This document shows positions 12,997-38,252 of a stretch of 61,811 bases of DNA, in pieces. The notes under the pieces are model-generated. The model was given only the letters and a program-made list of their open reading frames with translations, did no database searches and was not told the origin of the DNA. This DNA comes from an uncultured Candidatus Saccharibacteria bacterium (GTDB lineage: Bacteria; Patescibacteriota; Minisyncoccia; Phycocordibacterales; UBA12088), in NCBI GenBank assembly GCA_964383505.1, contig CAYLHB010000002.1, positions 1-61,811 on the forward strand, written 5' to 3'. Numbering within the stretch: position 1 is the stretch's first letter; the number at the start of each line of letters is the position of its first letter. Both the position numbers and the translations under genes were made by a program.

Positions 12997-13030
12997 AACA
13001 ACAAAGCACCCGTCTGGGTGCTTTGTTGTT
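12997..13030 (-). terminator. Hairpin closing the left repeat copy
   Basis: AACAACAAAGCACCC-GTCT-GGGTGCTTTGTTGTT perfect stem. It is the positional equivalent of the hairpin at 38012-38044. Confidence 0.5.
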
Positions 13031-13225
13031 CTGGATACTGCTCTCAGCAGGTATGCAATTACGGAATAGAGTCTGTGAATGACTTTTGGGAAGTTTCGAG
13101 CCCATGACTGGTTCTCAAAACTTCTTGACCGAAACGGCGATTTTAGCCGTCTCAGTAGGTCTCACATGACTGCTGACTGTCACGGTCCAGAACCTGTGCA
13201 GCAAAGCACCGTAAGCATAACATAT
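13028..13225. repeat. Left imperfect direct repeat of the island (putative att region)
   Basis: 13036-13060 TACTGCTCTCAGCAGGTATGCAATT is identical to 38049-38073. Lower-identity similarity continues rightward into a decayed tRNA-Gln T-arm look-alike (GGTCCAGAACCT). Confidence 0.7.
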
Positions 13226-13342
13226 CGCCTCGTCTACCCCTTAAGAGAGCTGTCTCGGTCACAGGGGTCATTTTGTGAAAGATACAAATGAGACACAAAA
13301 CACCCGTCTCGGTCACCGTCTCATTTACAAAGTAGTAGAAAA

Positions 13343-13367
13343 AAGGGGCGACTAGGTCGCCCCTTTC
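13343..13367 (-). terminator. Intrinsic terminator of the nucleotide operon
   Basis: Minus strand has GAAAGGGGCGAC-CTA-GTCGCCCCTTTTTTC overlapping the kinase-like gene stop. Confidence 0.7.
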
Positions 13368-14002
13368 AGGAACTTCGATTGCAGGATTCTCCACCCTGCT
13401 TCGATAGTATCATCGGCATCCATTGCTGAAGTATCGATAATATCGACAGCAGGAAAAAAACGACGAGTAGTCTCAAGCAATTTTCGATCATGTCTCATCA
13501 CGAACTCGGGGTCAGTGAAGGACATAAAGTCGCCAGGTGTGTTTGAACCTGGATGCTTGGCTTCTCGTTCTTGCACCCTCACCTTGCGCACATCGATACT
13601 GGCAGTGAGATAAATCACACTACCGAACCGTGGATGTGCCTCGAAGAGGGCGTCTGCAAGCTCGGGAATTATCGGAGTCTCTCGCATGAGATTGTACGAA
13701 ATCGTCCGGAGCCAGCAACTATCCTGCAAATGAACAACGCCTTCTTCGGGCGGTTTGAACAAGGTGGTGTCGTACAAATGCGAAGCCAGAAACAGCGCAC
13801 CGGTTTCCAGCATGGTGGTATGAGCACCTACTGCATACCGCTTTGCTTTTTTTCCCACAGGGTTTTCACCAAGCAGGTTATTCTTGGCACGCATAACTTT
13901 CCATCCTTGCTCGCGAAGCTTGACAGACAAACCTTCACAGAGAGTTGTTTTGCCTGCCAAATCCAGACCCTCAATGAGGATCATTCGATCTTGGTACTGC
14001 AT
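13352..14002 (-). CDS. P-loop (d)NMP kinase-like protein (thymidylate-kinase-like)
   Basis: MILIEGLDLAGKTTL resembles the Tmk P-loop IEGL(D/E)GAGKTT. 216 aa, with RBS TAGGAGGG upstream. Confidence 0.65.
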   Translation of the reverse strand: MQYQDRMILIEGLDLAGKTTLCEGLSVKLREQGWKVMRAKNNLLGENPVGKKAKRYAVGAHTTMLETGALFLASHLYDTTLFKPPEEGVVHLQDSCWLRTISYNLMRETPIIPELADALFEAHPRFGSVIYLTASIDVRKVRVQEREAKHPGSNTPGDFMSFTDPEFVMRHDRKLLETTRRFFPAVDIIDTSAMDADDTIEAGWRILQSKFLKGAT

Positions 14003-14089
14003 ATACAGTCCCTCCTATGAAGTTGAACTGTTTATGATTATACAACGATATTACCGTGTTTGCAAACAAAGAAAAATTGCTTCCATATC

Positions 14090-15451
14090 GAGTCTGTAAA
14101 ATATTTTGTGTAAATGGATTATCCACCGTACTCTAGGAGTACTATCCATTCACACCCATGAACCACACAACCACGAGCGATCAAAGCATCGCTACCCTTC
14201 TTGGCACCGACGAGTTCAAGGAAAAGGCAAAACAGCTTCGCACCCTCTCGGACGTCACCGCGTTCGCCAAGGAGCTCATAGCTCCAACACTCCAGAAGAT
14301 GCTTGAAGCGGAACTCGACGAGCACTTGGGATACAAGAAGCACGAAGTAGTCGGTCGAGGTACCGGCAACTCACGAAACGGCCACAGTCAAAAGAAGCTC
14401 AAAACCTCGTTCGGTACCGCAGAGCTTGCGGTACCCCGCGACCGCAATAGCACCTTCGAGCCGGTCGTCGTGAAGCGGTACGAGACCGTGGAGAGCGACG
14501 TTGAGGAGCGCATAATCTCGATGTACGCCAAAGGATTGACGACTCGCGACATCGCTACCCACATGCACGACATTTATGGTATCGACGTATCGAGTACCAT
14601 GATTTCAACAATCACCGACAAGGTACTCCCCCTGGTCTCCGAGTGGCAGCATCGACCCCTTGCATCTTGCTACGCACTCGTGTCCCTCGACGGTATCTAC
14701 TTCAAAGTGAGAGATAGTGGCAAGATTGTGAACCGTACCGCGTACATTGTTTTGGGCACCACCCTGGAAGGTGTGCGGGATATCCTGGGTATTTGGGTTG
14801 GGGAGAGCGAGGGTGCAAAGTTTTGGATGCACGTCCTCACCGAGATCAAGAACCGTGGAGTGGATGATATCCTGATTGCATCCATAGACGGACTCACGGG
14901 GTTCACGGACGCGATTCGTGCCGTATTCCCTGAAACTGACGTACAGCAGTGCATTGTCCACCAAGTGCGGAATACCATGAAGTATGTGCCCCACAAACAC
15001 AAGAAAGCGTTCGTGAGCGACCTTCGCTCAATCTACACCGCACCAACCGAGGGAGCTGGGCTCAATGAACTCGAACGGGTGAAGGATGCGTGGCCACAGT
15101 ACGCTGTATACCTTAAGAGCTGGGAGACCAAGTGGGGTGAGCTCTCCGCCTTCTACAAGTATCCGCCCGAAATACGGAAGATCATGTACACCACAAACGG
15201 TATCGAAAGCCTGAACCGCCAGTTCCGGAAGGTCACCAAAACGACGAGTATTTTCCCGCACGAGGAGTCACTTATGAAACTGCTCTGGCTTGCGCAGCGG
15301 GATATTACCCGACACTGGACTATGCAGGTCCGTGACTGGGGCACAATCGTGAGCGCGCTTGCGGTTTTGTATCCAGAGCGGGTGAAGCTTGATTAACGTG
15401 ACGCGCGCGTATGATTATCAACCCCGTTTACACAAAAGTACTTGCACACTC
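14090..15451 (+). mobile_element. IS256-family insertion sequence (1362 bp) with 8-bp target-site duplication
   Basis: Terminal inverted repeats GAGTCTGTAAAATATTTTGTGTAAATGG (left) and GAGTGTGCAAGTACTTTTGTGTAAACGG (right, reverse complement) match at 21/28 positions. It is flanked by TCCATATC at 14082-14089 and 15452-15459. Confidence 0.9.
14158..15396 (+). CDS. IS256-family (mutator-type) transposase
   Basis: 412 aa. LDEHLGYKKHE, GNSRNGHSQKKLKTSFG..L.VPRDRNSTFEP and C-terminal NGIESLNRQFRKVTK are typical of IS256 transposases. Confidence 0.9.
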   Translation: MNHTTTSDQSIATLLGTDEFKEKAKQLRTLSDVTAFAKELIAPTLQKMLEAELDEHLGYKKHEVVGRGTGNSRNGHSQKKLKTSFGTAELAVPRDRNSTFEPVVVKRYETVESDVEERIISMYAKGLTTRDIATHMHDIYGIDVSSTMISTITDKVLPLVSEWQHRPLASCYALVSLDGIYFKVRDSGKIVNRTAYIVLGTTLEGVRDILGIWVGESEGAKFWMHVLTEIKNRGVDDILIASIDGLTGFTDAIRAVFPETDVQQCIVHQVRNTMKYVPHKHKKAFVSDLRSIYTAPTEGAGLNELERVKDAWPQYAVYLKSWETKWGELSAFYKYPPEIRKIMYTTNGIESLNRQFRKVTKTTSIFPHEESLMKLLWLAQRDITRHWTMQVRDWGTIVSALAVLYPERVKLD

Positions 15452-16074
15452 TCCATATCCCCTATCCCATTTAGCCTGAGTTGTTCAGATGAGACGACTA
15501 GGTTGAAAGAAAATTCTTTTAATGCCGCTTCAGGTTTAATTTCGAGATACGAATCGTCTATCCACCATTTCACTTTAGGGAGCCTGAATCGATCAAGAGC
15601 GTCTGCGGCTCTTAAATATTTAGACAATGGCCTCGTATCCTTTAAGATCAGAAGTATCTGGTTCAAAAGCGGATGTTGAGCGAAATGTTCCAAAAGCCAA
15701 GTGATTGCTCTATCCTCGTGACCTTCGTCGCCTTTGTCATCCATACGCTGTGTGTCATGAACAGAACAGGCTATTAATAGAGCTTCCCTATCTCTGTCAT
15801 TAATCAATCCTCTAGTCAGAAGGGTGGCATAAACCATTACTCTCACTGTGTGCGCAATTCCATGAATAGACGACACGATCTTAGGATTAACATACCAGTC
15901 TGGTTTCGGTGATAAATCCTGAATCAAAGAAACCTCTCCGGCAGTTAAATAATAGTTGGTATGAAGCATCCGATATTCAGGTTTATTCTCTTTAATTCTA
16001 TCAAGAGTCTCTTGATCCATATTCTGAATATCAGGTTGTAACCTTTCTTGAGCTAATGACCAGAGACTTGTCAT
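15418..16074 (-). CDS. HD-domain phosphohydrolase-like protein, native C-terminus displaced by the IS
   Basis: HGIAHTVRV ... CSVHDTQRMDD gives an H...HD pattern. The last 10 codons (SVQVLLCKRG) are read from the IS terminal repeat. Confidence 0.6.
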   Translation of the reverse strand: MTSLWSLAQERLQPDIQNMDQETLDRIKENKPEYRMLHTNYYLTAGEVSLIQDLSPKPDWYVNPKIVSSIHGIAHTVRVMVYATLLTRGLINDRDREALLIACSVHDTQRMDDKGDEGHEDRAITWLLEHFAQHPLLNQILLILKDTRPLSKYLRAADALDRFRLPKVKWWIDDSYLEIKPEAALKEFSFNLVVSSEQLRLNGIGDMESVQVLLCKRG

Positions 16075-16652
16075 AATGATTTTAATTCATACAAATCCTT
16101 ACTGTACAAGATAAGTGAACCGACTTGATGAACATATGAACCTGCACTTACCCCGAGTTTAGATCCTACATATTTTTGCAAAGCAATCCCAAAACACACA
16201 TCTACTGGCAGTAGTTTTAGTAATTCATTTGAGCGCATGTGAACCACCGTAAACAGTTTGTCACTATTAATGTAAAAATGAATGCCAACCAAACAAGGAA
16301 CTTCGCCAGAGGCTCCAAAAATATAATTATTATCCCAAAGACTTAGATATGCCTTTTTACTATTCGGGTCATTCTGTAAACACTCAATGATACTTGAAAT
16401 TTCATTCTGCTTAATGATTTGATTGTAGTGCGATGTTTCAATATTAAAAACATCATCCTTTTCAGCATGAGAAAACGCTAACCCATCATATAAAATAGGG
16501 TTTTGAAAAGACTCAGGATGCAATATCTCAAAGTGTGCTGACTCTTGAAATATATGTTTACCTTGAGGATTATTTTCGCCTTTTAAATGCTCTTGGACTT
16601 GCTTAATACATGCAAGGTAAAGCTCATCAACTGATTCTGCTTTTATATTCAT
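16071..16652 (-). CDS. Minimal thymidylate-synthase-fold protein (193 aa)
   Basis: It aligns by eye to the ThyA core: LQNDPNSKKAYLSLW (LKNDPDSRR..SAW), VPCLVGIHFY (APCHAFFQFY, catalytic Cys), and HMRSNELLKLLPVDV (YQRSCDVFLGLPFNI). It lacks the ThyA LLWFL folate helix, and GGDTHLY is replaced by VGSLILY. Confidence 0.65.
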   Translation of the reverse strand: MNIKAESVDELYLACIKQVQEHLKGENNPQGKHIFQESAHFEILHPESFQNPILYDGLAFSHAEKDDVFNIETSHYNQIIKQNEISSIIECLQNDPNSKKAYLSLWDNNYIFGASGEVPCLVGIHFYINSDKLFTVVHMRSNELLKLLPVDVCFGIALQKYVGSKLGVSAGSYVHQVGSLILYSKDLYELKSL

Positions 16653-16658
16653 ATAATC

Positions 16659-17765
16659 CTATTTTACACGCAACACAGACTGAGCATTAGGTATTAAGAG
16701 TGGTACAATTTTTACGTCAACAGTATCGCCCACATCAACAACTCCGTTTATAAACGTCGCCCTATAGACATCTACTTCGTTATTAAACATAATTCCCATC
16801 TCACCCTTTGGGATTGTATCGTACTGGAGTAAAACTACACCTTCTTTATCACTCAACATAGAATCCACACCTATTTGCTCGATACCACTACGTAAATCTG
16901 CAGGGGAGTTTTTCAACATTAATCGACCTAATATTGCGTTTGGTTTATATTTCAAATCACTTAAATAGAATCGAATTCGAGCACACATAAACAAAGTAAA
17001 GTCATCAGAATTAAAAGTAGACATTATCTGACGTTGTTCTCTCAAATTAGATATGTGAATGGTCGTATCAGTAACAAAATGTGTAGTACTGAATGAAGTT
17101 TTTAGCTTTGGGGTAACGTCGAATAAGTAATTTTTAACCGCTTTTGCATACACTTCACCTTTCACCGCATAATCTAGCGATACTTTTGAATCCTGTTTTA
17201 TATAGAGGTATTCGTTTAGGCTCTCAAAATAAACATGCTTCAGTGCTGAAAACTTTGTAAAAAAGGTAACTATCTCGTTTAGGAAAAGGTCTCGCTTAAG
17301 GTCTATGAGGCTATCAATATCAGATAATGCTTGTCTATATAAATTCAAAACTTCTGGGGTACTTTCCGTGTCAGTATAGTATTCGCTCTCAAAGATATAA
17401 TTTATCTTTCCTTGGATTAATGAATTTCTGTACTGCATTTCTGACATTTCAAAAACCAAACACTCAACCTTGTTGGTGTTTGATGATTGAGGTATTTCCA
17501 CGTCAAAAATATATTGCCCTAGGTTATGTACACGGCCATCTGAATGCACAGGAGTAACGTATACGACACCGAACAAACCGCCTCCACTGACGTTTATTCT
17601 TCCAGATTCCAAAATGGATTTTATATTCGGAGAGAAGTGTACAAATCTAAATGTATTATCAGAATTTTTCCAACTTAATTCACTATCATTAAAACCCTTA
17701 CTTTTAAGCTCATCCAATAAGTATTTATTCCAACCTTCGCGAGATGTAAGTTTGTCATAATTCAT
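16659..17765 (-). CDS. Hypothetical protein (368 aa); weak H-Y-E ADP-ribosyltransferase-like N-terminal motif pattern
   Basis: FVHFSPNIKSILESGRI ... GGGLFGVVYVTP ... YIFDVEIP resembles the H-x-(S/T) / aromatic-Y / E arrangement of DarT/Tpt1-type folds. This is motif-level only. Confidence 0.5.
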   Translation of the reverse strand: MNYDKLTSREGWNKYLLDELKSKGFNDSELSWKNSDNTFRFVHFSPNIKSILESGRINVSGGGLFGVVYVTPVHSDGRVHNLGQYIFDVEIPQSSNTNKVECLVFEMSEMQYRNSLIQGKINYIFESEYYTDTESTPEVLNLYRQALSDIDSLIDLKRDLFLNEIVTFFTKFSALKHVYFESLNEYLYIKQDSKVSLDYAVKGEVYAKAVKNYLFDVTPKLKTSFSTTHFVTDTTIHISNLREQRQIMSTFNSDDFTLFMCARIRFYLSDLKYKPNAILGRLMLKNSPADLRSGIEQIGVDSMLSDKEGVVLLQYDTIPKGEMGIMFNNEVDVYRATFINGVVDVGDTVDVKIVPLLIPNAQSVLRVK

Positions 17766-17768
17766 AAA

Positions 17769-19208
17769 CTATATTTCCTCTGTCACAATTCTCTTCCCGA
17801 ACCAGCTATTTTTTGCAGCCAATGATCTGTATATTCCTGAGAAAACAACAGCTGTACGATGATGATCCAAGAAATTTGAACGCTGGTTCTCTGGTTCAAT
17901 ATCCTTATCAATATAATCAAAAAATTCTTTAATACAGATACGTCGAGCCTCCTCCTGATGTCCACGAGAGTACCCCTCAAGTTCAAAGCTCATTAAGTCC
18001 CGCACGTTGATTATTTCTACTGGTTTCCATTCAGGAAAAAGTTTATTATTTCTAAAAATAATAATTTCTAAGTGACGCTCTCCCCCTATTTCAAAGTGAT
18101 CGCTATTTTCTTCTAAAATCTCCTTTGACTGATAAGAATTAACAAAAATTGACTGGAATGGACCCTGCTCAATTACATGCTGTTCTTGTCGTACACGACC
18201 GTTTCCTTTGTACAAATCTCTCCCTTCAGCAGTCGCCCAATCTCTTTGACCGTATCCAGTATGGGCCAAGTTAAGGGTACCAAGAGTAATAACCTGCCCA
18301 TCTCGCTTGAATGTAATGTTTCCAGCTACATCAATTTCGCCAAAAGAGCGCATCAAACTCTTATACTCATTTCCATACTTAAAGTACTTGTCAGAATCTT
18401 TAAAAAGACGTTTATGATCGTCAATACTAAGTTGAGCGATAAAATCGGCGGGTCTACTGCTCTGACCATATATTTCTACACTATCAACTGCTTTATCTCC
18501 TTTATGTGTGAGATTGGTAAATTCACACAAAACATCAACCGAGTGATACCCTGAATGAGAAAGTTTTCCATAACCAGAATTATACGGATGATAGTCCTGT
18601 TCGATGATTTCATCTGGAAATCTCCACTGACCATCACAGTGGAGTGAAGACATTAGCGTAACAGGACAGTTCGTTTTGGAAAAAATCTCTTTTATTGCAT
18701 TCCTCGCAACATCATACGCAGTATGAAATCGTCTTTGAGCTAATATTGTGAAAACTACATTTTTGCGCTTCAAGACTTGCTGATATTTATCTTCGATAAG
18801 TCTGTACTCCTCAAGATTTCGCTTCGCTATCTTGAGTGAATTAGCAATTTTTGCAGCAGTTGAAATTGGCTTATCGAGTAGGATATGCAACTCCTTATCC
18901 AATGCCCACATTGAATACTCAAAGTGAGAAAGTGGCTCGGTGGCAATTAAAACAACACCTACTCCGTGTCTCTGCACAATTTCATCAAGCAATTTTCTCC
19001 AAACCTTACTGTCTTTCTTTTGCTCATTAGATAAAAAATATAACTCTGGAGAGACATTATGATCGCCAACATATTTGGTGATCAGTTCCCTTTCCTGCTC
19101 CACGTCAACAACCGCTACCAACTGAGCTGTGTTGGACAGCTCTTTTAAGATTGGTACGTGGATTCTACGAGCATGATAGCCCAATCCAATAAGTAAAACT
19201 TTATGCAT
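17769..19208 (-). CDS. Gfo/Idh/MocA-like NAD(P)-dependent oxidoreductase with a long divergent C-terminal domain
   Basis: N-terminal Rossmann fold KVLLIGLGYHARRIHVPIL ... VVLIATEPLSHFEYSMWALDKELHILLDKPIS (an EKP-like motif read as DKP). Confidence 0.6.
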   Translation of the reverse strand: MHKVLLIGLGYHARRIHVPILKELSNTAQLVAVVDVEQERELITKYVGDHNVSPELYFLSNEQKKDSKVWRKLLDEIVQRHGVGVVLIATEPLSHFEYSMWALDKELHILLDKPISTAAKIANSLKIAKRNLEEYRLIEDKYQQVLKRKNVVFTILAQRRFHTAYDVARNAIKEIFSKTNCPVTLMSSLHCDGQWRFPDEIIEQDYHPYNSGYGKLSHSGYHSVDVLCEFTNLTHKGDKAVDSVEIYGQSSRPADFIAQLSIDDHKRLFKDSDKYFKYGNEYKSLMRSFGEIDVAGNITFKRDGQVITLGTLNLAHTGYGQRDWATAEGRDLYKGNGRVRQEQHVIEQGPFQSIFVNSYQSKEILEENSDHFEIGGERHLEIIIFRNNKLFPEWKPVEIINVRDLMSFELEGYSRGHQEEARRICIKEFFDYIDKDIEPENQRSNFLDHHRTAVVFSGIYRSLAAKNSWFGKRIVTEEI

Positions 19209-19626
19209 TTAAGTGTTTTATAATCTTACTGGCCGCTTTAACATTATCCTCCTTTTCAAGTGTCTTAAACAACATATCTTTGTCGCACCATCGCAAATCA
19301 TCATGCTCGTCCGGTGCTAGTGTTACTTCAACACCAGTTTTAACTTCAACTGCATATACAAACTCTCGAATCTTTGTCTCACCTTTCATCCATTCAAAAT
19401 CATAAAACGGGCCTTCAATTTTAATGATATTTTCTGAATCAATACTGCACTCCTCTTTAATTTCGCGAGTTATTGTGCCAATCAAACTCTCGTTATCATG
19501 AACAGTACCAGTAACTGTCTGCCAAAAACCGCCATCGTCAGGAACTCTCTTGATACAAAGAAACTCAACACCTGCATCCGTCAATTGATATACAAAGGCA
19601 TTTACTCGAATAGGTAACTTGGTCAT
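19201..19626 (-). CDS. Nudix hydrolase, NudB-like
   Basis: Nudix box GTVHDNESLIGTITREIKEECSI. GFWQTVTG matches NudB DFWQSVTG. The stop overlaps the downstream start by 8 nt. Confidence 0.8.
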   Translation of the reverse strand: MTKLPIRVNAFVYQLTDAGVEFLCIKRVPDDGGFWQTVTGTVHDNESLIGTITREIKEECSIDSENIIKIEGPFYDFEWMKGETKIREFVYAVEVKTGVEVTLAPDEHDDLRWCDKDMLFKTLEKEDNVKAASKIIKHLNA

Positions 19627-19730
19627 GACTAGAGAATTAAACGTATAAGTATGGCTACTTTAGCATATTTTACAGTTAAATAAAGCTGTGGTTTATTGTT
19701 TTCTGATATTTCTCGTGCATAATTGCATTA

Positions 19731-20177
19731 ATGCAATACCTTACGTGGGAAGATTTAAACAGCAGTCAGAAGTCACTTCTTGAGACTGCCAAAGCCAATG
19801 CTGAAAAATCAGTAAGCCAAAATGGTCACAAGGTGGGCTGTTCGATCTGTGGCGAGAACGAGACATACAACGGATCAACAATATCTCATCCTAGAATTAT
19901 TGGTTCAACATGTGCTGAACGCATGGCTATCGATCACCTTCTTATCGATAATGATAAGCCAAAACTGTGCGCAGTCGTAGGTAAGCTTAATCGTGAGAAC
20001 TGGACAAAAGATAATCTTTGTACACCATGTGGACTTTGTCTTGAGATGTTTTGGGAATTACAAATGAAAACTGGCATTGATGATATAGACTTTCTTTGTG
20101 CAAATTGGGATTTAGATAGAATCCTGAGTATTAAACTTTCTAAACTATTCCCTCGCTTTGAAGCTGTGAAGCGTTAG
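19731..20177 (+). CDS. Cytidine/deoxycytidine deaminase-like protein (CDA fold)
   Basis: Zinc motifs CAERMAI and TPCGLCLEMF (C-A-E ... P-C-x-x-C). 148 aa, as in homotetrameric CDAs. Confidence 0.7.
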   Translation: MQYLTWEDLNSSQKSLLETAKANAEKSVSQNGHKVGCSICGENETYNGSTISHPRIIGSTCAERMAIDHLLIDNDKPKLCAVVGKLNRENWTKDNLCTPCGLCLEMFWELQMKTGIDDIDFLCANWDLDRILSIKLSKLFPRFEAVKR

Positions 20178-20203
20178 AAACTATTTCGTAACTGTATTTG
20201 CGT

Positions 20204-21535: not shown

Positions 21536-21584
21536 CCCTATATTCTATTCCTATTTTAAGTGATTTTTAAATAGCATTTTGTGT

Positions 21585-22472: not shown

Positions 22473-22494
22473 AATCTTCAATATACAAACAGCC

Positions 22495-23322
22495 TTAAGA
22501 AGTGCTATTGGTCGATTCAGATTCGAGTCTAAATAGATGGTTGAGTAACAAAAACTCAGATAGGTACTCCTGTGAATCACTTTGACGCTCTTTATGTGCA
22601 CGCGGATTTCGATACGCGGAATATGCATTGATAATAATGTTTGCCCTTGCCTTCTGCTCACCTTCGCTAATTCCGTTCCAGCTTAACCTTGAGTTTTGTT
22701 TGAGAAATGCTTCGGTGAATAATTTCGCTCCAATCTCGTAGCTACCAGTCCTTAGTCGGACAGCATCTTCAAATCTCCTATATCCATCCATAAGGTTGGT
22801 GTCAGGGTGCTGCCAAAATGAAACAGCAAGATCAATAATCCGTGGATCGATAATCGCATACGGAATAACTGGCCGAAATTCCTTCCACAAATCTCCTACT
22901 CGAGCCGCATCAAAATGTTGCGTTTCAATGTATTCGTATATGCGAAGCGGCCTTACTGGATTAAGCGCCTTTATCTCTTGAACATCAGCAGTTGTTAATG
23001 CCGAATGATCAAGTCGCTCTAGCATAGAATTATTTATTTCAAACTCGTCAATGTTGATACCGTGCTCCATTAGCAAGGCAAGCGCGTACGAAAATTTGCG
23101 TGGACCCTCGCCGGTGTAGCCGCTCGCAAAACCTGATTTAACTGCAATAAGTTCTATCGGTTCTACGGTGATAAGTAGCCCGTGCCTTCCTCTAGATGTA
23201 AGGATATGTACTTTGGATAGCTGATCGTTGTACTGCAATAGACGTACTACAGCATCAAGACATGTTTGTGTTATGCCTGCCTCACCCCAATATTGAATTC
23301 TTGCTAGTTTGGCATCACGCAT
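22495..23322 (-). CDS. TIGR02391 (Ymh-type HEPN) family protein with an unknown N-terminal domain
   Basis: The C-terminus GAKLFTEAF...EGEQKARANIIINAYSAYRNPRAHKE...EYLSEFLLLNHLFRL matches my recollection of the TIGR02391 pattern, with an RNPRAH Rx4H motif. Confidence 0.65.
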   Translation of the reverse strand: MRDAKLARIQYWGEAGITQTCLDAVVRLLQYNDQLSKVHILTSRGRHGLLITVEPIELIAVKSGFASGYTGEGPRKFSYALALLMEHGINIDEFEINNSMLERLDHSALTTADVQEIKALNPVRPLRIYEYIETQHFDAARVGDLWKEFRPVIPYAIIDPRIIDLAVSFWQHPDTNLMDGYRRFEDAVRLRTGSYEIGAKLFTEAFLKQNSRLSWNGISEGEQKARANIIINAYSAYRNPRAHKERQSDSQEYLSEFLLLNHLFRLESESTNSTS

Positions 23323-30609: not shown

Positions 30610-31186
30610 GGTGTTGCTTGCGGTTTAGCCGATGGCCGGATGCACAAAGCCCGCCACCAGGAGAGTCCGAAGACTCCTACCAGAGTTTCCCCTGATAACG
30701 CAAGCAACGCCCTGAATGACGGGTTCTCTACGTTGCTTGCGATTCTTAGACCATGCCGCCAGCATGTGCTGATGGTTTAGGTCCTGCCCCTTTCGGGATT
30801 ACTATTCAGTTGTACACTAAGAGAATAGCGCACAATTGAGCTCCCGTCGACTCTAGGGGTACCCTAACTTAGCTTCGGACGGTTGCGAAGCTTGCATCTC
30901 AAACCATGTGTGCTGTAAACTAAATGCAGTCCAGTGAATTCGTTCACCTTTCGCGCCAAAACAAAATGAGGCGGCGAGATGCAATGCATCTTTTGAGTCG
31001 AGGCAGTTGCCGGGTGATGGTCGTCTAACGGCTATCTACCAAGGGGCCATTGACGGAGGTAACAAACGTAACCAATCATGGTTAGTGTTTGTTGCATCCG
31101 TCGAGTGTCTCTACAGACGTATGCAAAAACACCAACCACAGCGTTGGTGTTTTTGCTGGACTGATTACCAACTAATCAGTCACAGT
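30610..31186. other. 577-bp structured non-coding spacer (candidate ncRNA, regulatory region or pac/ori-like region)
   Basis: No credible ORF. GTTGCTTGCG occurs at ~30612 and ~30733, with its complement CGCAAGCAAC at ~30699. There is an internal hairpin GGAGAGTC-CGAA-GACTCC. The spacer ends in a plus-strand terminator. Confidence 0.45.
31123..31156 (+). terminator. Intrinsic terminator just upstream of the ParB-MTase gene
   Basis: GCAAAAACACCAAC-CACAGC-GTTGGTGTTTTTGC with a U-rich 3' side. Confidence 0.7.
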
Positions 31187-32467
31187 ATGGCGAAGCAAAA
31201 GTTAGCATGGCGCACCGAACGCCGCAAAGTAAAGGACCTTATTCGCTATGTAAAGAACCCTCGCAAATTATCAGAAGCACAGCTTGATGGACTGAAGCGC
31301 AGCCTCAAGAAGTTCAACCTTGCCGAGTTGCCTGCCATCAATACGGACGGCACCCTGGTTGCGGGAAATCAGCGAGTACTTGCACTCTCGCTGATTGGGC
31401 GTGAAGAGGAAGAAATCGAAGTACGGGTACCGAATCGGCCGCTGTCCGAAGCGGAGTTTCGCGACTATCTGCTCACGTCTAACAGGTCTGGAGGATCATG
31501 GGACTTCGAGAAGTTAGCGGCCGAGTTCGACATTGATGAACTCCTCACGGCTGGATTCGATTCGCTCGACCTCTCAAACATTTTTGACGACAACCTGGAG
31601 ATTGTTGACGATGCGTTTGATGAGGAAAAGGAGGTACAGAAAGCGCTTGATACCGATATCAAACCCGGGGACTATTTTGCCCTCGGTCGGCATCGGCTGC
31701 TTTGCGCTGACGCTACCGACCCAGAGAACGTGAAGCGTTTGATGGCTGGGGAAACTGCCGACATGGTCAACGATGATTTACCCTTCAATATCGACCTGTC
31801 GTATGACAAAGGGGTCGGAAACAAGGCTCGCTATGGCGGAACCACCAATGACAATAAGACTGATGCGGAGTACGAGCGATTTGTGGGAAGTGTGATGCAG
31901 AATGCCCTCACGGTAAGTAAAGCAAATGCACACATCATGTTCTGGTGTGACGAACGGTATGTCTGGCTTTTCCAGGAGCTCTACAAGGAACTCGGGATTG
32001 ATTCGAAGCGTCTTTGTGTCTGGATTAAAGACAATCAGTCACCTACCCCGAAGAATGCCTTCAATAAGGTGACGGAGTTTTGTGTGTACGGCACCATTGG
32101 TCGGCCATGGCTGAATGACAAGATTAAGAACCTGAACGAAATTCAGAACAAGGAAGTGACGTCAGGCAATCGACTCACTGACGACATTCTCGACCTCCTA
32201 AACATCTGGCTCGTTAAGCGCCTACCCAGTTCCGAGTATCAGCATCCGACACAAAAGAGCCCTACGCTCCATGAAAAAGCGCTTCGTCGTTGTACTCGAC
32301 CCGGTGATATCGTGCTCGACCTTACTGCTGGCTCGGGAAGTATCCTCTCGGCATGCGAGCAATTAAAGAGAACTGCATACATGTGCGAGATGGAGCCAGT
32401 GTTCTGCCAAGTCATTATTAACCGCTTTAAGCAACTCTCACATGTCGAAGTCATCAAACTCAATTAA
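31187..32467 (+). CDS. ParB-like nuclease N-domain fused to a beta-class N4/N6 DNA methyltransferase
   Basis: The ATG at 31187 lies after the terminator. The N-terminus IRYVKNPRK...AGNQRVLAL is ParB-like. It has a DLPFN (degenerate DPPY) motif, then HPTQKSP and LDLTAGSGS (motif I). Confidence 0.8.
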   Translation: MAKQKLAWRTERRKVKDLIRYVKNPRKLSEAQLDGLKRSLKKFNLAELPAINTDGTLVAGNQRVLALSLIGREEEEIEVRVPNRPLSEAEFRDYLLTSNRSGGSWDFEKLAAEFDIDELLTAGFDSLDLSNIFDDNLEIVDDAFDEEKEVQKALDTDIKPGDYFALGRHRLLCADATDPENVKRLMAGETADMVNDDLPFNIDLSYDKGVGNKARYGGTTNDNKTDAEYERFVGSVMQNALTVSKANAHIMFWCDERYVWLFQELYKELGIDSKRLCVWIKDNQSPTPKNAFNKVTEFCVYGTIGRPWLNDKIKNLNEIQNKEVTSGNRLTDDILDLLNIWLVKRLPSSEYQHPTQKSPTLHEKALRRCTRPGDIVLDLTAGSGSILSACEQLKRTAYMCEMEPVFCQVIINRFKQLSHVEVIKLN

Positions 32468-33203
32468 GCCCGGGGACATCTTTTGCCTCAGTAGCCATCT
32501 TCTTCTGTGTGGGGATGCACGTAGCAAGGATATGGTCGCCAAGCTCGTTGGAAAGAATAAAATCAATGCCGTCATTTCGGACCCCCCGTACGGTGTTGCT
32601 GTGACTGAAAGCAAGGAGGGGTTCCAGACGCTCGCTAAGAGCAAAGTAATTGCGAACGACCACCTCCAAAGCGACGAGGAGTACCGCAAGTTCAGTAGTG
32701 ATTGGATCGGAGTGATTACACCTTTCCTTGCCCGCAAGAATTCCATCTACATCTTCAACTCCGACAAGATGGTTTTTGCCCTGCGCGAGGGGTTGGTCCA
32801 GGGAGGCGTCAAGTTCGCCCAGCTCCTCATATGGGTCAAGACGCATGCCGTTATAGGACGGATGGACTACGCACCACAGCACGAACTCATCGCTTATGGC
32901 TGGTACGGCACACACGAGTTTCTTAAATCCAAAGACAAGAGTGTCCTCGTATACCCAAAACCGAACAAAAGCGCGATGCACCCTACAACAAAGCCGATCG
33001 CACTCATACGTCATCTTATTCTCAACTGCACCCGAGTCGGTGACGTGGTGTTCGATGGCTTCCTTGGATCAGGTACCACCCTGCTCGCTTGTGAGCAGAC
33101 CAAGCGTATCTGTATCGGTGTTGAACTCGACCCAGAGTATTGCCAAACCATCATCGCGCGGTACGAAAAGTTAACCGGTCGTAAGGCAGAGCGGTATGAG
33201 TAG
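32442..33203 (+). CDS. Beta-class N4/N6 DNA methyltransferase
   Basis: SDPPYGV (motif IV), HPTTKP, FDGFLGSGTT (motif I). It overlaps the upstream MTase gene by 26 nt. Confidence 0.85.
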   Translation: MSKSSNSIKPGDIFCLSSHLLLCGDARSKDMVAKLVGKNKINAVISDPPYGVAVTESKEGFQTLAKSKVIANDHLQSDEEYRKFSSDWIGVITPFLARKNSIYIFNSDKMVFALREGLVQGGVKFAQLLIWVKTHAVIGRMDYAPQHELIAYGWYGTHEFLKSKDKSVLVYPKPNKSAMHPTTKPIALIRHLILNCTRVGDVVFDGFLGSGTTLLACEQTKRICIGVELDPEYCQTIIARYEKLTGRKAERYE

Positions 33204-33621
33204 ACGTGACACCATCACCGCTCGGCAAAACAAACTCAAGGAGGCGTTCCTCGAGCAACTTAAACGCACTCCCACAATCGAGACAGCATGCCAGAAAGTC
33301 GGCGTTGCGCGGGCGACCGTATACCGCTGGATAAAAGCAGACAAGCGGTTTGAAAAACAGGTGGATGGAGCACTTACCGAAGGCCGCATGTTTATGAGCG
33401 ATATTGCAGAGAACCAGCTTTTTTCGCTCATTGGAGATAAGAAGATTGAAGCGATTAGACTGTACCTCTCGACGCATAACCCCCGGTATAGCAACAAACT
33501 GGAGGTGTCTAATTCCCTTCTAGACAACAACGAGCCGCTCACAAAAGAGCAGAAGAAACTAATTCGCGAAGCGCTCAAGCTCTCCTCCTTACGCAACTAT
33601 GGCAAGAAAAAAGAAAAGTAA
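33196..33621 (+). CDS. HTH protein, terminase small-subunit-like
   Basis: 141 aa. ETACQKVGVARATVYRWIKAD is an HTH. It lies immediately upstream of and overlapping the large terminase gene. Confidence 0.55.
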   Translation: MSRRDTITARQNKLKEAFLEQLKRTPTIETACQKVGVARATVYRWIKADKRFEKQVDGALTEGRMFMSDIAENQLFSLIGDKKIEAIRLYLSTHNPRYSNKLEVSNSLLDNNEPLTKEQKKLIREALKLSSLRNYGKKKEK

Positions 33622-35077
33622 ATCAGAGCAACTTTTTGACACGGTGCTCTCTGATAAGGTAATGCGCAAAGCTCTCGTGCGGCAGCGTCTTGAGTATTTC
33701 TTCCCGATCTACTTTCATCGATACCTGCAATACGAGACGGCGGACTTCCACAACGAGCTATTCGATATCCTCGAGGACGAGACGAACAAGCTTGCGGTCA
33801 TTTGCGCCTTCCGTGGGTCCGCCAAGTCGACTATTGTCACGACCGCCTACGTACTGTGGTCAATATTGGGGGTGCAACAGCGTAAATTTATTGTCATCTG
33901 CGGACAGACCGAGCAGAAGTCGCGGCAGTACCTCCTCAATATCAAGAACGAACTGATGCACAACGACCTGCTGAAGAAAGACCTCGGGCCATTTACGGAG
34001 GAAAGAAACGATCTGGGCAATGCTACGGCGATCATCATTAAGCGACTCAACGTAAAGATTATGATTAGCTCCGTCGAGCAGAGCATCCGTGGTATGCGCC
34101 ACGGCGAGTATCGTCCAGATCTCATCATTCTCGACGACATCGAGGACACCAACTCGGTTAAAACCAGAGAGGGTCGCGACAAAGCATTCAACTGGCTCAC
34201 GAGCGAGGTGATTCCTGCGGGAGATAAGCGAACACGTGTGATTGCGGTGGGCAACCTCCTCCACGAAGACTCTGTACTGAAACGCCTCCAGAGAAAGATC
34301 GAGAGCGGCGAGATGACGCACCTCAACGGCGTATATCGGGAGTATCCCATTGTGGATATTCAAGGCAATCCCCTCTGGCCGGGCAAGTATCCAACAACCG
34401 ACGACATTGAAGCAGAACGACAGAAGACTATGAGCGAAACAGCTTGGTATCGAGAGTACCTCCTTAAGATCATCTCGACCGAAGAGCAAGTAGTGCACCC
34501 TGAATGGATTCAGTGCTACAGCACCGAGCCACGGCACAATTTGCGGAACATATCAATCGGAATTGATTTGGCAGTGAGTGAGAAAGAATCAGCCGACTGC
34601 ACCGCCATGGTGGTCGGATACACGCACGGCTACGGCAAGGACATGTGTATATACATACAGCCAAATCCCATAAATGCGCGTATGACGTTTCCAGAACAAG
34701 TTGCATGCATCAAGTCACTCGTTGCAGTGCATAAGCAGACACATTATCGCGTCAAGTTGTATATCGAGGATGTTGGGTACCAAAAAGCTCTGGTGCAGGT
34801 ATTTGATAGTCAAAAATATGACGTCGAGGGAGTACCGACCGGAAGGAGCGACAAAACAGCACGTCTGCGGTTGACCACGTCATTCATTAAGGAAGGTAGG
34901 GTGCTCTTCCCCGAGACCGGGTGCGAAGAGCTCATTGAGCAACTGACGGGATTTGGTAAGGAGAAGCATGACGACCTTGCAGACGCCTTCGCGATTCTGG
35001 TCTTAAAGATCATTGAGAACAATCCTAAGGGAGGATCATGTGGCATCTTCACGGGCCCGCGCCCAGACGCCTTGTAA
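33599..35077 (+). CDS. Phage terminase large subunit
   Basis: Walker A-like FRGSAKST, Walker B LIILDDIED, and C-terminal RNase-H-like nuclease acidic residues (GIDLAV..., HDDLADAF). Confidence 0.8.
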   Translation: MARKKKSKSEQLFDTVLSDKVMRKALVRQRLEYFFPIYFHRYLQYETADFHNELFDILEDETNKLAVICAFRGSAKSTIVTTAYVLWSILGVQQRKFIVICGQTEQKSRQYLLNIKNELMHNDLLKKDLGPFTEERNDLGNATAIIIKRLNVKIMISSVEQSIRGMRHGEYRPDLIILDDIEDTNSVKTREGRDKAFNWLTSEVIPAGDKRTRVIAVGNLLHEDSVLKRLQRKIESGEMTHLNGVYREYPIVDIQGNPLWPGKYPTTDDIEAERQKTMSETAWYREYLLKIISTEEQVVHPEWIQCYSTEPRHNLRNISIGIDLAVSEKESADCTAMVVGYTHGYGKDMCIYIQPNPINARMTFPEQVACIKSLVAVHKQTHYRVKLYIEDVGYQKALVQVFDSQKYDVEGVPTGRSDKTARLRLTTSFIKEGRVLFPETGCEELIEQLTGFGKEKHDDLADAFAILVLKIIENNPKGGSCGIFTGPRPDAL

Positions 35078-35146: not shown

Positions 35147-36541
35147 ATGGAAACAACACAAAAGCCAGCGGCGGGTCTGGCACAAGGAATAGACCCCACA
35201 GCGATAAAATACTGCCTCTATGCCCGGAAATCGACCGAACAAGAGGATAAACAGGCCCTATCGATAGATTCGCAGGTGCGCGAAATGGTTGCCCTTGCAG
35301 AACGAGACGGGCTGGAAATAGTGGAGATTAAGCGAGAATCACATTCCTCGAAAGAAGTAGGTCAACGACCCGTATACAACGAACTGATTAGTGAAATCAG
35401 ACAAGGTAAGTTCAACGGGATACTCACTTGGGCACCAGACCGACTCTCTCGCAACGCTGGCGACCTTGGAAGCGTCGTTGACTTGATGGATCAAAAACTC
35501 CTTCACGAGATTCGCACATATGGACAGAAGTTTACGAACAACCCGAACGAGAAATTCTTGCTAATGATCCTTGGGTCGCAAGCTAAGCTCGAAAATGACA
35601 ATAAGATGGTGAACGTGAAGCGAGGACTCAGGGCACGGTGCGAAATGGGTCTGTGGCCTTCTGTGCCGCCAACTGGATACTTGAGTCACTCGGACAGAAA
35701 CAGGAAGTGCGAGGTTATGATCGACGAACTACGTGCACCCGTCATCAAACAGATGTTTGAGAAAGTAGCATATGACGGGTGGTCGGGACGAAAGATCTTT
35801 AAGTGGCTATCGCATGAAATGCGGTTCACAACAAAGCATGGGAAGGCGCTGACCCTGAGTAATATTTACTTAATTTTTAAGAGTACCTTCTACTACGGCG
35901 AGTTTGAATATCCAAAAGGAAGCGGTCAATGGTACACAGGAAAACACGACCCAATCATCACCATGGACCTCTTCAACCTCGTCCAAAAGCAGGTCACCAC
36001 TGATCATCTGGTACGGGCGCAGGACAAGGAATTTGCGTTCACTCGTATGATAACGTGCGGGCTTTGCGGGTCAGGTGTGACCGCTGACGAGAAGTTCAAG
36101 AAACTAAAAGATGGTACCCTCGCCCGCTACGTGTACTACGGATGTACGAAGTTCAAAGATAAGAATTGCCCGTGCGGATACCTACGTGAAGATGACCTGA
36201 TTGAACAGCTCGCCAACATTCTCGACACGGTGGCGCTCGACGAGATTGGTATGAAAGACAAAATCAAAGCTGAGATCGAATCACACAATGAATTTCAGGA
36301 GTCGGTGCTTGGGCAGAAATCAGCAAAGGTGAAGGTGCGGGAGGTAGACATTAGGAACTACGCGAAGCACATTCTACATAAGCGGCCGATTTATGAGAAG
36401 CGAGGGCTGCTCAGTTGCTTAAAAAGCAGGCTGGTTCTTGCAAACAAAAGTATCTTTCTACTTAACAACACTTCTTGTAACAGCGCAGTCCCAAATAAGT
36501 CGAGAACCGTCACTCACTTCGCCAAAGGCGATTGCGCTTAG
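35147..36541 (+). CDS. Large serine recombinase (integrase)
   Basis: Resolvase catalytic segment CLYARKSTEQED...SIDSQ and WAPDRLSRN. It has a recombinase domain and a zinc ribbon CGLCGS...YYGCTKFKDKNCPCG. The ORF is open from the GTG at 35123. Confidence 0.85.
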   Translation: METTQKPAAGLAQGIDPTAIKYCLYARKSTEQEDKQALSIDSQVREMVALAERDGLEIVEIKRESHSSKEVGQRPVYNELISEIRQGKFNGILTWAPDRLSRNAGDLGSVVDLMDQKLLHEIRTYGQKFTNNPNEKFLLMILGSQAKLENDNKMVNVKRGLRARCEMGLWPSVPPTGYLSHSDRNRKCEVMIDELRAPVIKQMFEKVAYDGWSGRKIFKWLSHEMRFTTKHGKALTLSNIYLIFKSTFYYGEFEYPKGSGQWYTGKHDPIITMDLFNLVQKQVTTDHLVRAQDKEFAFTRMITCGLCGSGVTADEKFKKLKDGTLARYVYYGCTKFKDKNCPCGYLREDDLIEQLANILDTVALDEIGMKDKIKAEIESHNEFQESVLGQKSAKVKVREVDIRNYAKHILHKRPIYEKRGLLSCLKSRLVLANKSIFLLNNTSCNSAVPNKSRTVTHFAKGDCA

Positions 36542-37144
36542 GTCAACTCCCACCAGATCATCTTTTGACCTACCTTTTAGATACCGTGGGGACACTTGCA
36601 ACGTGCCCCTGAAAGGGGTCGGTATATCTATCTCCCTGTGTATCACAAGCACCTTTTCTCCATTGTTCATTTGAATAGCACCGACTTCGTGTGCGTTCTT
36701 AATAGTATGTATGGTTGTTTGTGCACCGACTATCAGAATCATTATGTCTGTTGCTTTGTTCTCTGACGCTCTAGGTATTTTGATGATCGTCCTTCCATCC
36801 TCGACGAATGCCGTTTTCACGGCACTGCTCGGAGTGATGATATGAAAGGCTAGAGTTATGCCTGGTTTTAGTTCTTTCGGTCTCGTCCATTTCTGTATAT
36901 ATCGGTCGGTTCCAATAGGACTGATCTCTTTGATATCACGATTGAAGACGTGCTCTGGATAAGCAACATGCCATTGCCCTGTCGGATGCATGCTTGCATG
37001 AATAGCTCCGCGTAACTCGCGACAGAGAAGGTAAAGCTCGGGCAGACCAGATTTGGCACTAATCTGGTATCGCAAGTGCCACGTAGCGGCACGTTGATTG
37101 CCATCGACTACACCAAATCGTAGCGCGATGTTCATGGCCAACAT
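36458..37144 (-). CDS. Hypothetical protein (228 aa)
   Basis: ORF that ends a three-gene minus-strand unit. I recognise no family. Confidence 0.45.
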   Translation of the reverse strand: MLAMNIALRFGVVDGNQRAATWHLRYQISAKSGLPELYLLCRELRGAIHASMHPTGQWHVAYPEHVFNRDIKEISPIGTDRYIQKWTRPKELKPGITLAFHIITPSSAVKTAFVEDGRTIIKIPRASENKATDIMILIVGAQTTIHTIKNAHEVGAIQMNNGEKVLVIHREIDIPTPFRGTLQVSPRYLKGRSKDDLVGVDLSAIAFGEVSDGSRLIWDCAVTRSVVK

Positions 37145-37150
37145 AGATTC

Positions 37151-37570
37151 CTATATGATATCAGGTAGTAGTCCATATCCCTGAAGAACGTAAATTGCCG
37201 CAACACCAAGTGTAGTTGCAAAAATTACCAAAACCCCGTACCTACTCATTAGCCACGTAAGAATTCTTTCTTTTCTCGGACCCCAACCACCATTCCATTT
37301 GTACCCAACAATCGCAACAAAGTAGACTGCCGCCGTCAGCATAATAGCCCAGTTGAGCACGCTATGCGTAAGAAAGAATGGCAGGTTCTCATAGGTAGGT
37401 TCTGGTAGCAAGAAATAGTTGAGTAAATCATCGACAGTATTATTTATAGCAAAAATGCACCACACTATAGTTAGCCAAAGGTAGTCGCGGTGTTTGTACT
37501 TCTTCCACCAAATGTAAGACCAGATGGTCACGACTATGCCGACGATCGAGAAAAAGAATTCTACCAACAT
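37151..37570 (-). CDS. Small integral membrane protein (about 4 TM helices)
   Basis: Hydrophobic segments FFFSIVGIVVTIWSYIW, LWLTIVWCIFAI, WAIMLTAAVYFVAIVGY and VLVIFATTLGVAAIYVL. Confidence 0.55.
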   Translation of the reverse strand: MLVEFFFSIVGIVVTIWSYIWWKKYKHRDYLWLTIVWCIFAINNTVDDLLNYFLLPEPTYENLPFFLTHSVLNWAIMLTAAVYFVAIVGYKWNGGWGPRKERILTWLMSRYGVLVIFATTLGVAAIYVLQGYGLLPDII

Positions 37571-37573
37571 AAG

Positions 37574-37996
37574 TTACCGGAAGACATCACTAGTGTTCCG
37601 CTTTCCTGTGATAATATCGATAACGGCTTCACGATGAGCGTCGAGCACAGGGTGTACCCAAACGCCTTCTCCAATCTTTCCTCCACCCATGCCTCCAGCC
37701 ACAATGTCACCAACGTCATGTGGTTCGTATACAATTCTTCTCGTATCATCCTCGTTGTGTGGCCAAACTATGGCATCCAATGAGTGCAACAATCTCTGCA
37801 ACTCATTTTCAGAGCACATGATCAGTCGTACTGGTGCAGTTGCATAAATCGTCCCACCGTCATCTCCTTCGAGTACTGCATACCCATTAGGAATTTCGCG
37901 AGCTGACCCTAGGTTGTCTACTGCGATATACTCTTTACCATTACTTAGCGCCATAAGATATCGAAGTGGACTTCCGTGTAATAACCGTTCTTTCAT
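37574..37996 (-). CDS. Hypothetical protein (141 aa)
   Basis: ATG at 37996 (MKERLL) preceded by ACGGAG. It is 3 nt upstream of the membrane-protein gene. Confidence 0.45.
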   Translation of the reverse strand: MKERLLHGSPLRYLMALSNGKEYIAVDNLGSAREIPNGYAVLEGDDGGTIYATAPVRLIMCSENELQRLLHSLDAIVWPHNEDDTRRIVYEPHDVGDIVAGGMGGGKIGEGVWVHPVLDAHREAVIDIITGKRNTSDVFR

Positions 37997-38011
37997 AGTG
38001 ACTCCGTTATA

Positions 38012-38044
38012 ACACAAATCCACCCTATTGGGTGGATTTGTGTT
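38012..38044 (-). terminator. Hairpin terminator closing the tRNA-Gln trailer (right repeat copy)
   Basis: Minus strand has CACAAATCCACCC-AATA-GGGTGGATTTGTG. Confidence 0.55.
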
Positions 38045-38181
38045 CTGGCTACTGCTCTCAGCAGGTATGCAATTTCAGAATAGGATCGCGTGATTCCTGA
38101 AAGTTCGTGCCCATGACTGATGCCTAAAACTTTCTGGCCGAAACGACGTTTTTAGCCGTCTCGGTAGGTCTCACTACGCTG
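38041..38181. repeat. Right imperfect direct repeat of the island / conserved tRNA-Gln trailer
   Basis: 33/34 identity with 13028-13061, then patchy identity (CCCATGACTG, CCGAAACG, TTTAGCCGTCTC.GTAGGTCTCAC) up to the tRNA-Gln 3' end. Confidence 0.7.
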
Positions 38182-38252
38182 CTGCCGGACTAGGACTCGA
38201 ACCTAGATAAACGGAGCCAGAATCCGTTGTCCTACCATTAGACGATCCGGCA
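38182..38252 (-). tRNA. tRNA-Gln (anticodon CUG), no encoded CCA
   Basis: Minus strand reads TGCCGGATCGTCTAATGGTAGGACAACGGATTCTGGCTCCGTTTATCTAGGTTCGAGTCCTAGTCCGGCAG. It has the U1:A72 pair typical of bacterial tRNA-Gln and anticodon loop TTCTGGC. Confidence 0.85.

Follow-up and report, generated by a model that had tools for sequence, protein, structure and literature searches.

A probable tandem pair of integrative elements behind tRNA-Gln(CUG) in a Saccharibacteria genome, and the conserved trailer module that both carry

By what event did an island of about 25 kb come to lie behind a tRNA-Gln gene, and at which bases did the crossover take place? This question is raised by the stretch of 61,811 nucleotides analysed here (the window), from an uncultured Candidatus Saccharibacteria bacterium, which is the entire contig C2 (CAYLHB010000002.1) of a metagenome bin of 786 kb, 50 contigs and 93% completeness (assembly GCA_964383505.1; G000 in what follows). 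The island is bounded by two diverged direct repeats sharing a core of 25 identical nucleotides, and a first-pass annotation had placed the crossover in this core, with a single element inserted into the tRNA trailer and bringing its own copy of the target. An island of foreign origin behind tRNA-Gln, with a look-alike of the tRNA end at its far side, is indeed what we find; however, the left repeat belongs to a second element. We hold with considerable confidence that two integrative elements lie in tandem at this locus, their insertion point being precisely the 3′ terminus of tRNA-Gln(CUG), and that the two repeats are the modules of these elements, A and B. The features involved are the following, from the tRNA leftward:

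38182..38252, minus strand: intact tRNA-Gln(CUG) (ARAGORN, 38181-38252; Rfam tRNA, 61.1 bits, 38182-38252), the proposed left arm of attB
38103..38181, minus strand: trailer of element A, a 79-nt domain of the "long type" that begins directly after the tRNA discriminator base
38041..38083, minus strand: box A, the 25-mer (38050-38074) with semi-conserved flanks, holding a 5-bp hairpin, CUGCU-GAG-AGCAG
38011..38047, minus strand: rho-independent terminator of module A, whose RNAalifold consensus stem is retained though stem sequences vary between loci
35147..36541, plus strand: large serine recombinase (LSR), convergent with the tRNA (Pfam Resolvase, Recombinase and Zn_ribbon_recom; PHROG integrase, E 1.3e-61)
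13173..13197, minus strand: P arm of element A (pseudo-tRNA sequence, GGTTC-N14-CAG); similar arms lie upstream of modules at other loci and in the related genome G001
12997..13172, minus strand: module B, of a remnant element, with trailer (13094-13172), linker, box (13027-13069; 25-mer 13036-13060) and terminator (12997-13033)
12844..12987, minus strand: hsdR fragment (amino acids 392-439), the sole remaining cargo of element B (tblastn, 79% over 48 amino acids against the hsdR of element A)
12820..12841, minus strand: P arm of element B, GGTTC-N14-CAG, by eye near the arms of loci L047 and L054
12757..12819, minus strand: B′, the native 3′ flank of tRNA-Gln(CUG), by local alignment to the flanks in the relatives G016 and G008
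11366..12634, minus strand: xseA, the chromosomal left neighbour (Pfam Exonuc_VII_L, E 4.8e-60), collinear with G001 and G016 up to 12634

The order from the tRNA leftward is tRNA-Gln, junction J1, element A, J2, element B, J3, native flank and xseA. J1 (38182|38181) joins the tRNA end to element A, J2 (13173|13172) joins the pseudo-tRNA arm of element A to element B, and J3 (12820|12819) joins the arm of element B to the native tRNA-Gln 3′ flank. Element A (13173-38181; 25,009 bp) is complete, and element B (12820-13172; 353 bp) is reduced to a module, an hsdR fragment and an arm. The only core common to the three junctions and to the flanks of G016, G008 and G001 is CAG|C, and the recombination points lie at the tRNA 3′ end, about 110-125 nt away from the box. 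Sites that share CAG|C alone fit a serine recombinase, and not a crossover within 25 identical bases; the role given to the core is thus contradicted by the junctions, as it is by the exact conservation of the box in 34 Patescibacteria contigs.

The repeats extend well beyond this core. The 25-mer occurs without mismatches at 13036-13060 and 38050-38074 (two matches in 0 of 100 shuffles), the left position as first given and the right one a base higher than the 38049-38073 reported, and its leftward extension with 33 of 34 identical positions (13027-13060 versus 38041-38074) is correct. Similarity outside the core, upon proper alignment, is significant over a repeat of about 210 nt: a BLAST search of 12990-13215 against the genome returns 38021-38174 (79% identity, E 4.2e-30), and the MAFFT alignment of the two repeats has a mean column identity of 78%. 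On the minus strand, which is that of the tRNA, both modules follow the order tRNA 3′ end or look-alike, 79-nt trailer, linker, 43-nt box and terminator, with identities between A and B of 15/25 in the tRNA-like arm, 65/80 in the trailer domain, 12/24 in the linker, 40/43 in the box, and 30/39 in the terminator, whose stem is retained. Trailer B shares 70% identity with trailer A and 74% with the trailer of locus L058, and the domain keeps its exact length of 79 nt, with conserved ends, in 13 of 15 aligned sequences. The right repeat ends in an intact tRNA-Gln, as first described, with a CUG anticodon (ARAGORN, Rfam). The left one does carry a look-alike, GGTCCAGAACCT at 13185-13196; however, since at least 11 other copies of the module bear a pseudo-arm, it represents a recurrent form and not a copy of the target that decayed in this locus only. 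At the repeats, tRNA is the sole Rfam match (gathering scan of the window; E-value scan of 37950-38260, where RNAI is the best non-tRNA match, its 21.8 bits falling short of the gathering score of 47), and no curated family among the Rfam 15 covariance models matched the trailer-box module. A candidate long-range pairing within the module is not preserved across sequences and was rejected.

Other loci bear the same junctions. An all-versus-all comparison of the box loci gave four locus pairs, 93-99.85% identical over 1.1-5.4 kb, whose members differ upstream only, the identity starting directly after CAG|; in each pair, one locus bears a real tRNA-Gln where its partner bears a pseudo-arm. In G001, of the same genus, a different element shows the order tRNA-Gln(CUG), short trailer, box, terminator and LSR (60% identical to that of the window), and about 10.9 kb further on, native flank sequence of the same kind begins behind a GGTTC-N14-CAG arm. 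G008 bears an element, its LSR 78% identical to that of the window, that is inserted at the CAG| of an incomplete tRNA-Gln copy. The synteny of tRNA-Gln(CUG) with pyrG is preserved in G016 and G018, and a tblastx search of the tRNA-Gln(CUG) flanks of these two genomes against G000 gave no match, which indicates that the island is not at tRNA-Gln(CUG) there.

At the far end of the array, the native flank (about 60 nt) scores 43 in alignment with the sequence behind tRNA-Gln(CUG) of G016 and 40 with that of G008, each score being reached in 0 of 5000 shuffles, and none of the control targets (G018 flank, trailer A, trailer B) was significant; this homology rests on direct alignment with shuffles. 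The hsdR fragment of element B forms a direct repeat (D1) 84% identical to 25052-25165, within element A. Two side observations concern this region. A low-depth contig from the public hot-spring metagenome runs X1 and X2 matches 12771-12822 only and continues with a different tRNA-like sequence at the same CAG, the partner being either the arm of another element or a variant tRNA; a second strain of the community thus differs at J3. Additionally, in G016 (L029, ~12404-12580), G008 (L032, ~12385-12545) and G001 (L100, ~1400-1580), a native flank of about 60-70 nt is followed by a partial tRNA-Gln copy, which may be the older footprint of another kind of element; the LSR element of G008 sits at the end of this copy.

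The first-pass annotation expected an empty site in relatives, with xseA adjoining tRNA-Gln. This arrangement is absent at all 13 xseA loci checked: tRNA-Gln lies within the 1.5-kb flank of xseA at 0 of 13, and tRNA-Trp at 9 of 13. In the window, 38 kb separates xseA from tRNA-Trp, made up of the island array and a 12.4-kb block of core genes (38253-50672: pyrG, ftsEX, prfB, two tRNA-Thr and an aminoacyl-tRNA synthetase), and collinearity with G001 and G016 jumps from 12634 to ~50673. Since the gene order of the core block differs from G001 too, and xseA adjoins tRNA-Trp in relatives, the left neighbour of the array appears to be the product of a chromosomal rearrangement in this lineage. This rearrangement ends within ~40 nt of the tRNA-Trp 3′ end. 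The compositional discontinuity expected for the island is present, with a G+C content of 35-51% within it versus 55-60% in the flanks.

The recombinase lies 1.5 kb from J1 and is likely the integrase of the island, as had been proposed, on account of its full domain set (PF00239, E 2.4e-19; PF07508, E 2.5e-12; PF13408, E 1.7e-07), its catalytic-serine motif (YARKST, residues 33-38 of the translation) and its linkage to the module. Its nearest PDB match is SPbeta SprA (E 1.6e-10, aligned over residues 34-418). The best NCBIfam match is CcrB with 128.9 bits, followed by CcrC and CcrA with about 50 bits; the CcrB score is so far under the cut-off of 900 that the protein is not a Ccr. No tyrosine integrase was found among the 24 open reading frames (ORFs) of the island scanned with Pfam. 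The first statement that the LSR is the only recombinase inside needs correction, since an IS256-family transposase is encoded at 14158-15396 (Pfam E 2.7e-114). Linkage and polarity recur elsewhere: a jackhmmer search over the ORFs of 41 box loci places an LSR at 13 of them, all downstream and convergent and none upstream, a count that is a lower bound, most loci having less than 5 kb of downstream sequence. In six loci the LSR abuts the terminator, with the box 68-85 nt from the end of its ORF. The long trailer accompanies all six LSRs that are at least 72% identical to that of the window, and none of the eight with 62% identity or less.

Two further recombinases were observed. At L090 (G007:C1:81835-86130), an LSR 58% identical to that of the window and tRNA-Ser(UGA) are convergent, ~110 nt separating the LSR from the 3′ end of the tRNA, and the locus has a terminator and no box; the target common to these proteins would thus be the tRNA end and not the box, and relatives of the window LSR seem to use other tRNA ends too. 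A second, distant LSR (33-35% identical) lies at the start of contig C13 of the same genome (G000:C13:266-1333).

The box has a wide distribution. The exact 25-mer is present in 34 contigs carrying Saccharibacteria, Paceibacterota/Parcubacteria, Kaiserbacteria, Campbellbacteria and Minisyncoccia labels, with one labelled Cloacimonadota, and had 0 occurrences in a collection of viral contigs. The 41 copies examined comprise these 34, five from genomes of the family and the two of the window. Every copy has the same layout, namely a variable trailer, short (~50 nt) or long (~130 nt), a semi-conserved lead-in of the CTAT type, the 25-mer, a tail of the CAGAAC type, and a terminator with a locus-specific stem. 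In 22 of the 41 a tRNA ends 50-205 nt upstream, and it is tRNA-Gln in 22 of 22; at least 11 further copies have instead a short arm that retains GGTTC and the terminal CAG, with the T-stem unpaired (by eye). Tandem arrays are also found in L036, L043, L048, L055 and L072. Of 26 genomes of the family, 5 carry the box (at most 3 mismatches), and a stem-variant scan of 401 genomes sampled across the phylum matched four, two of them credible; the stems of the other two do not pair, and these matches, which look like chance, were discarded.

The box is invariant while the adjoining LSRs have diverged to 55% identity, which makes it unlikely to be their recognition site. Variants of its hairpin are found only in L048 and G008, where three pairs have changed in compensation, so that pairing is retained, and one closing pair is lost; changes of this kind favour a single-strand role, most simply as RNA. 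Judging from these patterns, the box is most likely an RNA part at the 3′ side of a replacement trailer of tRNA-Gln, which would end the tRNA transcript before the element.

Three observations on trailers and modules stand beside this. The other glutamine tRNA of the genome (UUG; G000:C14:22427-22734, L003) is followed by a 79-nt long-trailer domain without a box, and its contig ends 235 nt later. A box-less long trailer also lies behind real tRNA-Gln genes in L036 and L043. The palindrome ATACCCCCTAGGGGGTAT, which we take to resemble a CsoR-type copper operator, lies ~20 nt past the module terminator in 7 of 36 copies inspected (L038, L046, L057, L060, L061, L065 and L066), and is followed by ~4 kb of shared sequence.

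The mechanism that we propose would work as follows. Each element would carry at its recombinase end a module consisting of trailer, box with its small hairpin, and terminator, and at its far end a short pseudo-tRNA arm, GGTTC-N14-CAG. The LSR would recombine the arm|trailer site of the element (attP) with the tRNA 3′ end (attB), the two having only CAG|C in common. Integration at this point severs the tRNA gene from its own 3′ flank, so that the element would supply a new trailer and terminator. In the window, element B would have been the first to insert; element A would then have entered the junction between the tRNA and element B, joining its own arm to module B (J2) and leaving the arm of B on the native flank (J3). 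The box would be read by conserved machinery of the host as part of the replacement trailer.

Several points weigh against this proposal. The homology of the native flank is short, ~60 nt at roughly 65-70% identity, and a whole-genome DNA search with it missed G016 and reached E values of only 0.03-0.15 in G001 and G008; the reading of element B rests on 353 bp. Neither an excised circle nor an empty site was found among the X1 and X2 contigs, and contigs lose rare forms; dyad symmetry of the arms, judged only by eye, is not convincing. Many locus pairs (79-88% identity over 1-4.6 kb) have sequence in common that starts within the box, with trailers that are unrelated, which makes the box a second mosaic boundary, one that the tandem-array model explains by homologous exchange only. 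As for the RNA role, it comes from two variant sequences only, the 79-nt trailer yields no consensus RNA fold (-1.38 kcal/mol, 0 compensatory pairs), and the search of the genome for a pairing partner of the box returned only chance 10-12-mers.

The second mosaic boundary is the basis of the rival that survives best, and which we nevertheless regard as unlikely: the box would be an additional recombination site, either similar to an integration site or a folded single-strand site like the attC of integrons, at which cargo cassettes running from terminator to LSR are exchanged. Apart from the boundary itself, this would account for a cargo between terminator and LSR that varies from 0 to 4.9 kb, for the pairing of the same downstream sequence types with different trailers, and for the compensatory changes in the hairpin, since a folded single strand needs them too. 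However, no second box lies beside the cargo, each locus having one exact match and nothing box-like being found near the end of the window LSR, nor is a second recombinase linked to the box; moreover, 43 nt of perfect identity suffices for ordinary homologous exchange.

Crossover inside the 25-nt core, as in the first-pass annotation, is quite improbable. In that case there would be a single 25-kb element, the right trailer being chromosomal and the left trailer with its pseudo-tRNA being the copy of the target carried by the element. The identity of the core in both repeats, the closeness of the box to the LSR in the six loci mentioned above, and the many pairs whose common sequence begins inside the box with unrelated trailers would all agree with it, and so would the match to CcrB, even if far under cut-off, Ccr-type serine recombinases being known to leave direct repeats at the ends of their elements. 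Against this, it leaves unexplained J3, in which an arm meets native sequence 210 nt leftward of the left core, the arm|flank junction of G001, and the four near-identical pairs, in which trailer, box and downstream sequence are common and tRNA and pseudo-arm differ. Nor does it agree with the unrelated trailers behind the same tRNA in the congeneric G000 and G001, with a trailer type that tracks the LSR clade, or with a related LSR at a tRNA-Ser without a box.

Even less probable is that no site-specific event took place, and that the locus arose by duplication of tRNA-Gln or by homologous recombination with a donor chromosome bearing the island. Repeats of ~210 nt, similar on both sides of the core, in a neighbourhood rearranged with respect to relatives, would be expected from such events; precise CAG|C junctions at three sites of the window, in G001, in G008 and in four locus pairs would not, nor would pseudo-arms that recur in unrelated hosts, a module missing from most relatives, or a left trailer no nearer to the right one (70%) than to that of another genome (74%). 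Finally, a contig mis-joined at the repeated box, which a 50-contig metagenome bin and several module copies at contig ends elsewhere might suggest, can practically be dismissed, since contigs from X1 (26,386 nt, covering 11867 to beyond 30999) and X2 (covering 12051-13401) span the left junction with 0 differences, although X1 is possibly the source sample, so that X2 alone is partly independent.

Within the tandem-array reading, we put forward a more specific proposal only tentatively. The box-hairpin module may be a new kind of mobile-element part, an element-encoded replacement 3′ trailer which integration fuses to an essential single-copy tRNA, and which is transcribed from the tRNA promoter and removed by tRNA processing, with the box acting as a signal, in RNA or in folded single-stranded DNA, for the machinery of the host. 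Such a signal would mark the end of the tRNA transcript, report the integrated state, or label the element for transfer.

How does this array compare with known systems? The closest are the integrative elements and prophages with LSRs of the SPbeta SprA, TP901-1, A118 and phiC31 type, with which it shares the three recombinase domains and the serine motif, a recombinase gene adjoining the attachment site, and attP and attB sites with few bases in common (here CAG|C) and otherwise dissimilar arms. Unlike in those elements, the target here is the exact 3′ end of a tRNA, a choice typical of tyrosine integrases; one of the attP arms imitates the T-loop and acceptor end of the tRNA; an invariant box and a terminator are carried and become fused to the tRNA; and the hosts are Patescibacteria, with LSRs of low similarity to the solved ones (E 1.6e-10). 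Elements of the SCCmec type, moved by Ccr recombinases, target the 3′ end of a single conserved gene and form tandem arrays that include decayed remnants without recombinase, with repeats at each boundary. The array of element A and the 353-bp element B at one chromosomal site is alike in this respect; however, its target is tRNA-Gln and not rlmH, its recombinase is not CcrA, CcrB or CcrC, and its long repeat is not the site of exchange.

Islands inserted at tRNA genes by tyrosine integrases share with this one the position downstream of a tRNA, the direct repeats, the lower G+C content and the defence cargo. In contrast to them, the repeat does not reproduce the 3′ segment of the tRNA (15/25 between arm and tRNA end), the tRNA stays wholly chromosomal, the identical stretch lies ~110-125 nt beyond the tRNA, and the 24 ORFs scanned include no tyrosine integrase. 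The terS and terL genes beside the integrase, and the lack of capsid and portal genes, recall, in gene content, phage satellites or defective prophages with terminase; unlike in these, the same backbone of LSR and module bears quite different cargo elsewhere. Our literature search found no description of serine recombinases at tRNA-Gln in these bacteria. The passages available from PMC12455944 mention genomic islands, and the terms recombinase, integrase and tRNA do not appear in them. What is new is thus an undescribed conserved module borne by LSR integrative elements with SCC-like arrays, themselves of a known kind.

The remaining cargo of element A is listed here from the module A end to the far end:

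36458..38023, minus strand: three ORFs (228, 139 and 149 amino acids) between module A and the LSR gene, with no Pfam or PHROG match
33599-35077, plus strand: large terminase, terL (Pfam; PHROG terL, E 9.1e-82)
33196-33621, plus strand: small terminase, terS (Pfam; PHROG terS)
31007-32467 and 32442-33203, plus strand: N6/N4 DNA methylases (Pfam)
30662..30783, minus strand: LOOT RNA (Rfam RF03000; 75.3 bits against a gathering score of 46.4)
29503-30609: ORF of 368 amino acids downstream of the LOOT RNA, with a weak match to NucS-like nucleases (Pfam, NCBIfam)
26350-28908, minus strand: fused HsdM-HsdS of a type I restriction-modification system (Pfam)
23330-26353, minus strand: HsdR of a type I restriction-modification system (Pfam)
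22495-23322, minus strand: Ymh-family protein (Pfam)
15418..22661, minus strand: nucleotide-metabolism cluster of low G+C content (35-43%), with Pfam matches to HD (weak), ThyA-like, GFO/IDH/MocA oxidoreductase and NUDIX, and three ORFs of unknown function
19731-20177, plus strand: cytidine/dCMP deaminase within that cluster (Pfam)
14090..15451, plus strand: insertion sequence of the IS256 family, whose inverted ends span 28 nt and whose target duplication, TCCATATC, is 8 bp long (transposase 14158-15396, Pfam Transposase_mut, E 2.7e-114)
13352..14002, minus strand: dTMP-kinase-like ORF at the far end (Pfam PF02223, E 2.8e-07; NCBIfam under cut-off)

The terminases are at most ~25% identical to those of phages, and the gene order from methylases to terminases (31007..35077) is the same in L038. 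No head, portal, tail or capsid genes were found in element A (Pfam, and PHROG for the ORFs of unknown function), and the element is therefore not a complete prophage. In the low-G+C cluster, all NCBIfam matches fall under their cut-offs and PADLOC returned nothing solid. Together with the dTMP-kinase-like ORF, from which it is parted by the IS256 insertion, the cluster (13352-14002 and 15418-22661) looks like the gene sets with which phages make modified DNA bases, or like a nucleotide-based defence. A literature search on LOOT RNA found nothing useful. Outside the array, two ORFs with pilin-like domains of type IV secretion, one also with a lytic transglycosylase domain, adjoin tRNA-Trp (50979-53299) and are conserved in G001 and G016.

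Patescibacteria have tiny genomes and, to our knowledge, few genetic tools. The LSR system described here, whose attachment sites map to the end of a conserved tRNA, accounts for the movement of defence and metal-resistance cargo from class to class, and is a candidate tool for site-specific integration in these organisms, which published abstracts put at about a quarter of bacterial diversity. The pseudo-tRNA arm presents a serine recombinase with the target choice usual for tyrosine integrases, and the two repeats of the window are a caution for annotation, since the direct repeats at the ends of an island may differ from the scar of its insertion. Sequence conservation of the degree seen in the 25-nt box across classes is, as far as we know, rare outside rRNA and tRNA, and thus points to an undescribed function. 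If the box does act as an RNA signal, the islands that serine recombinases move in Patescibacteria would need an RNA part besides their protein-DNA sites.

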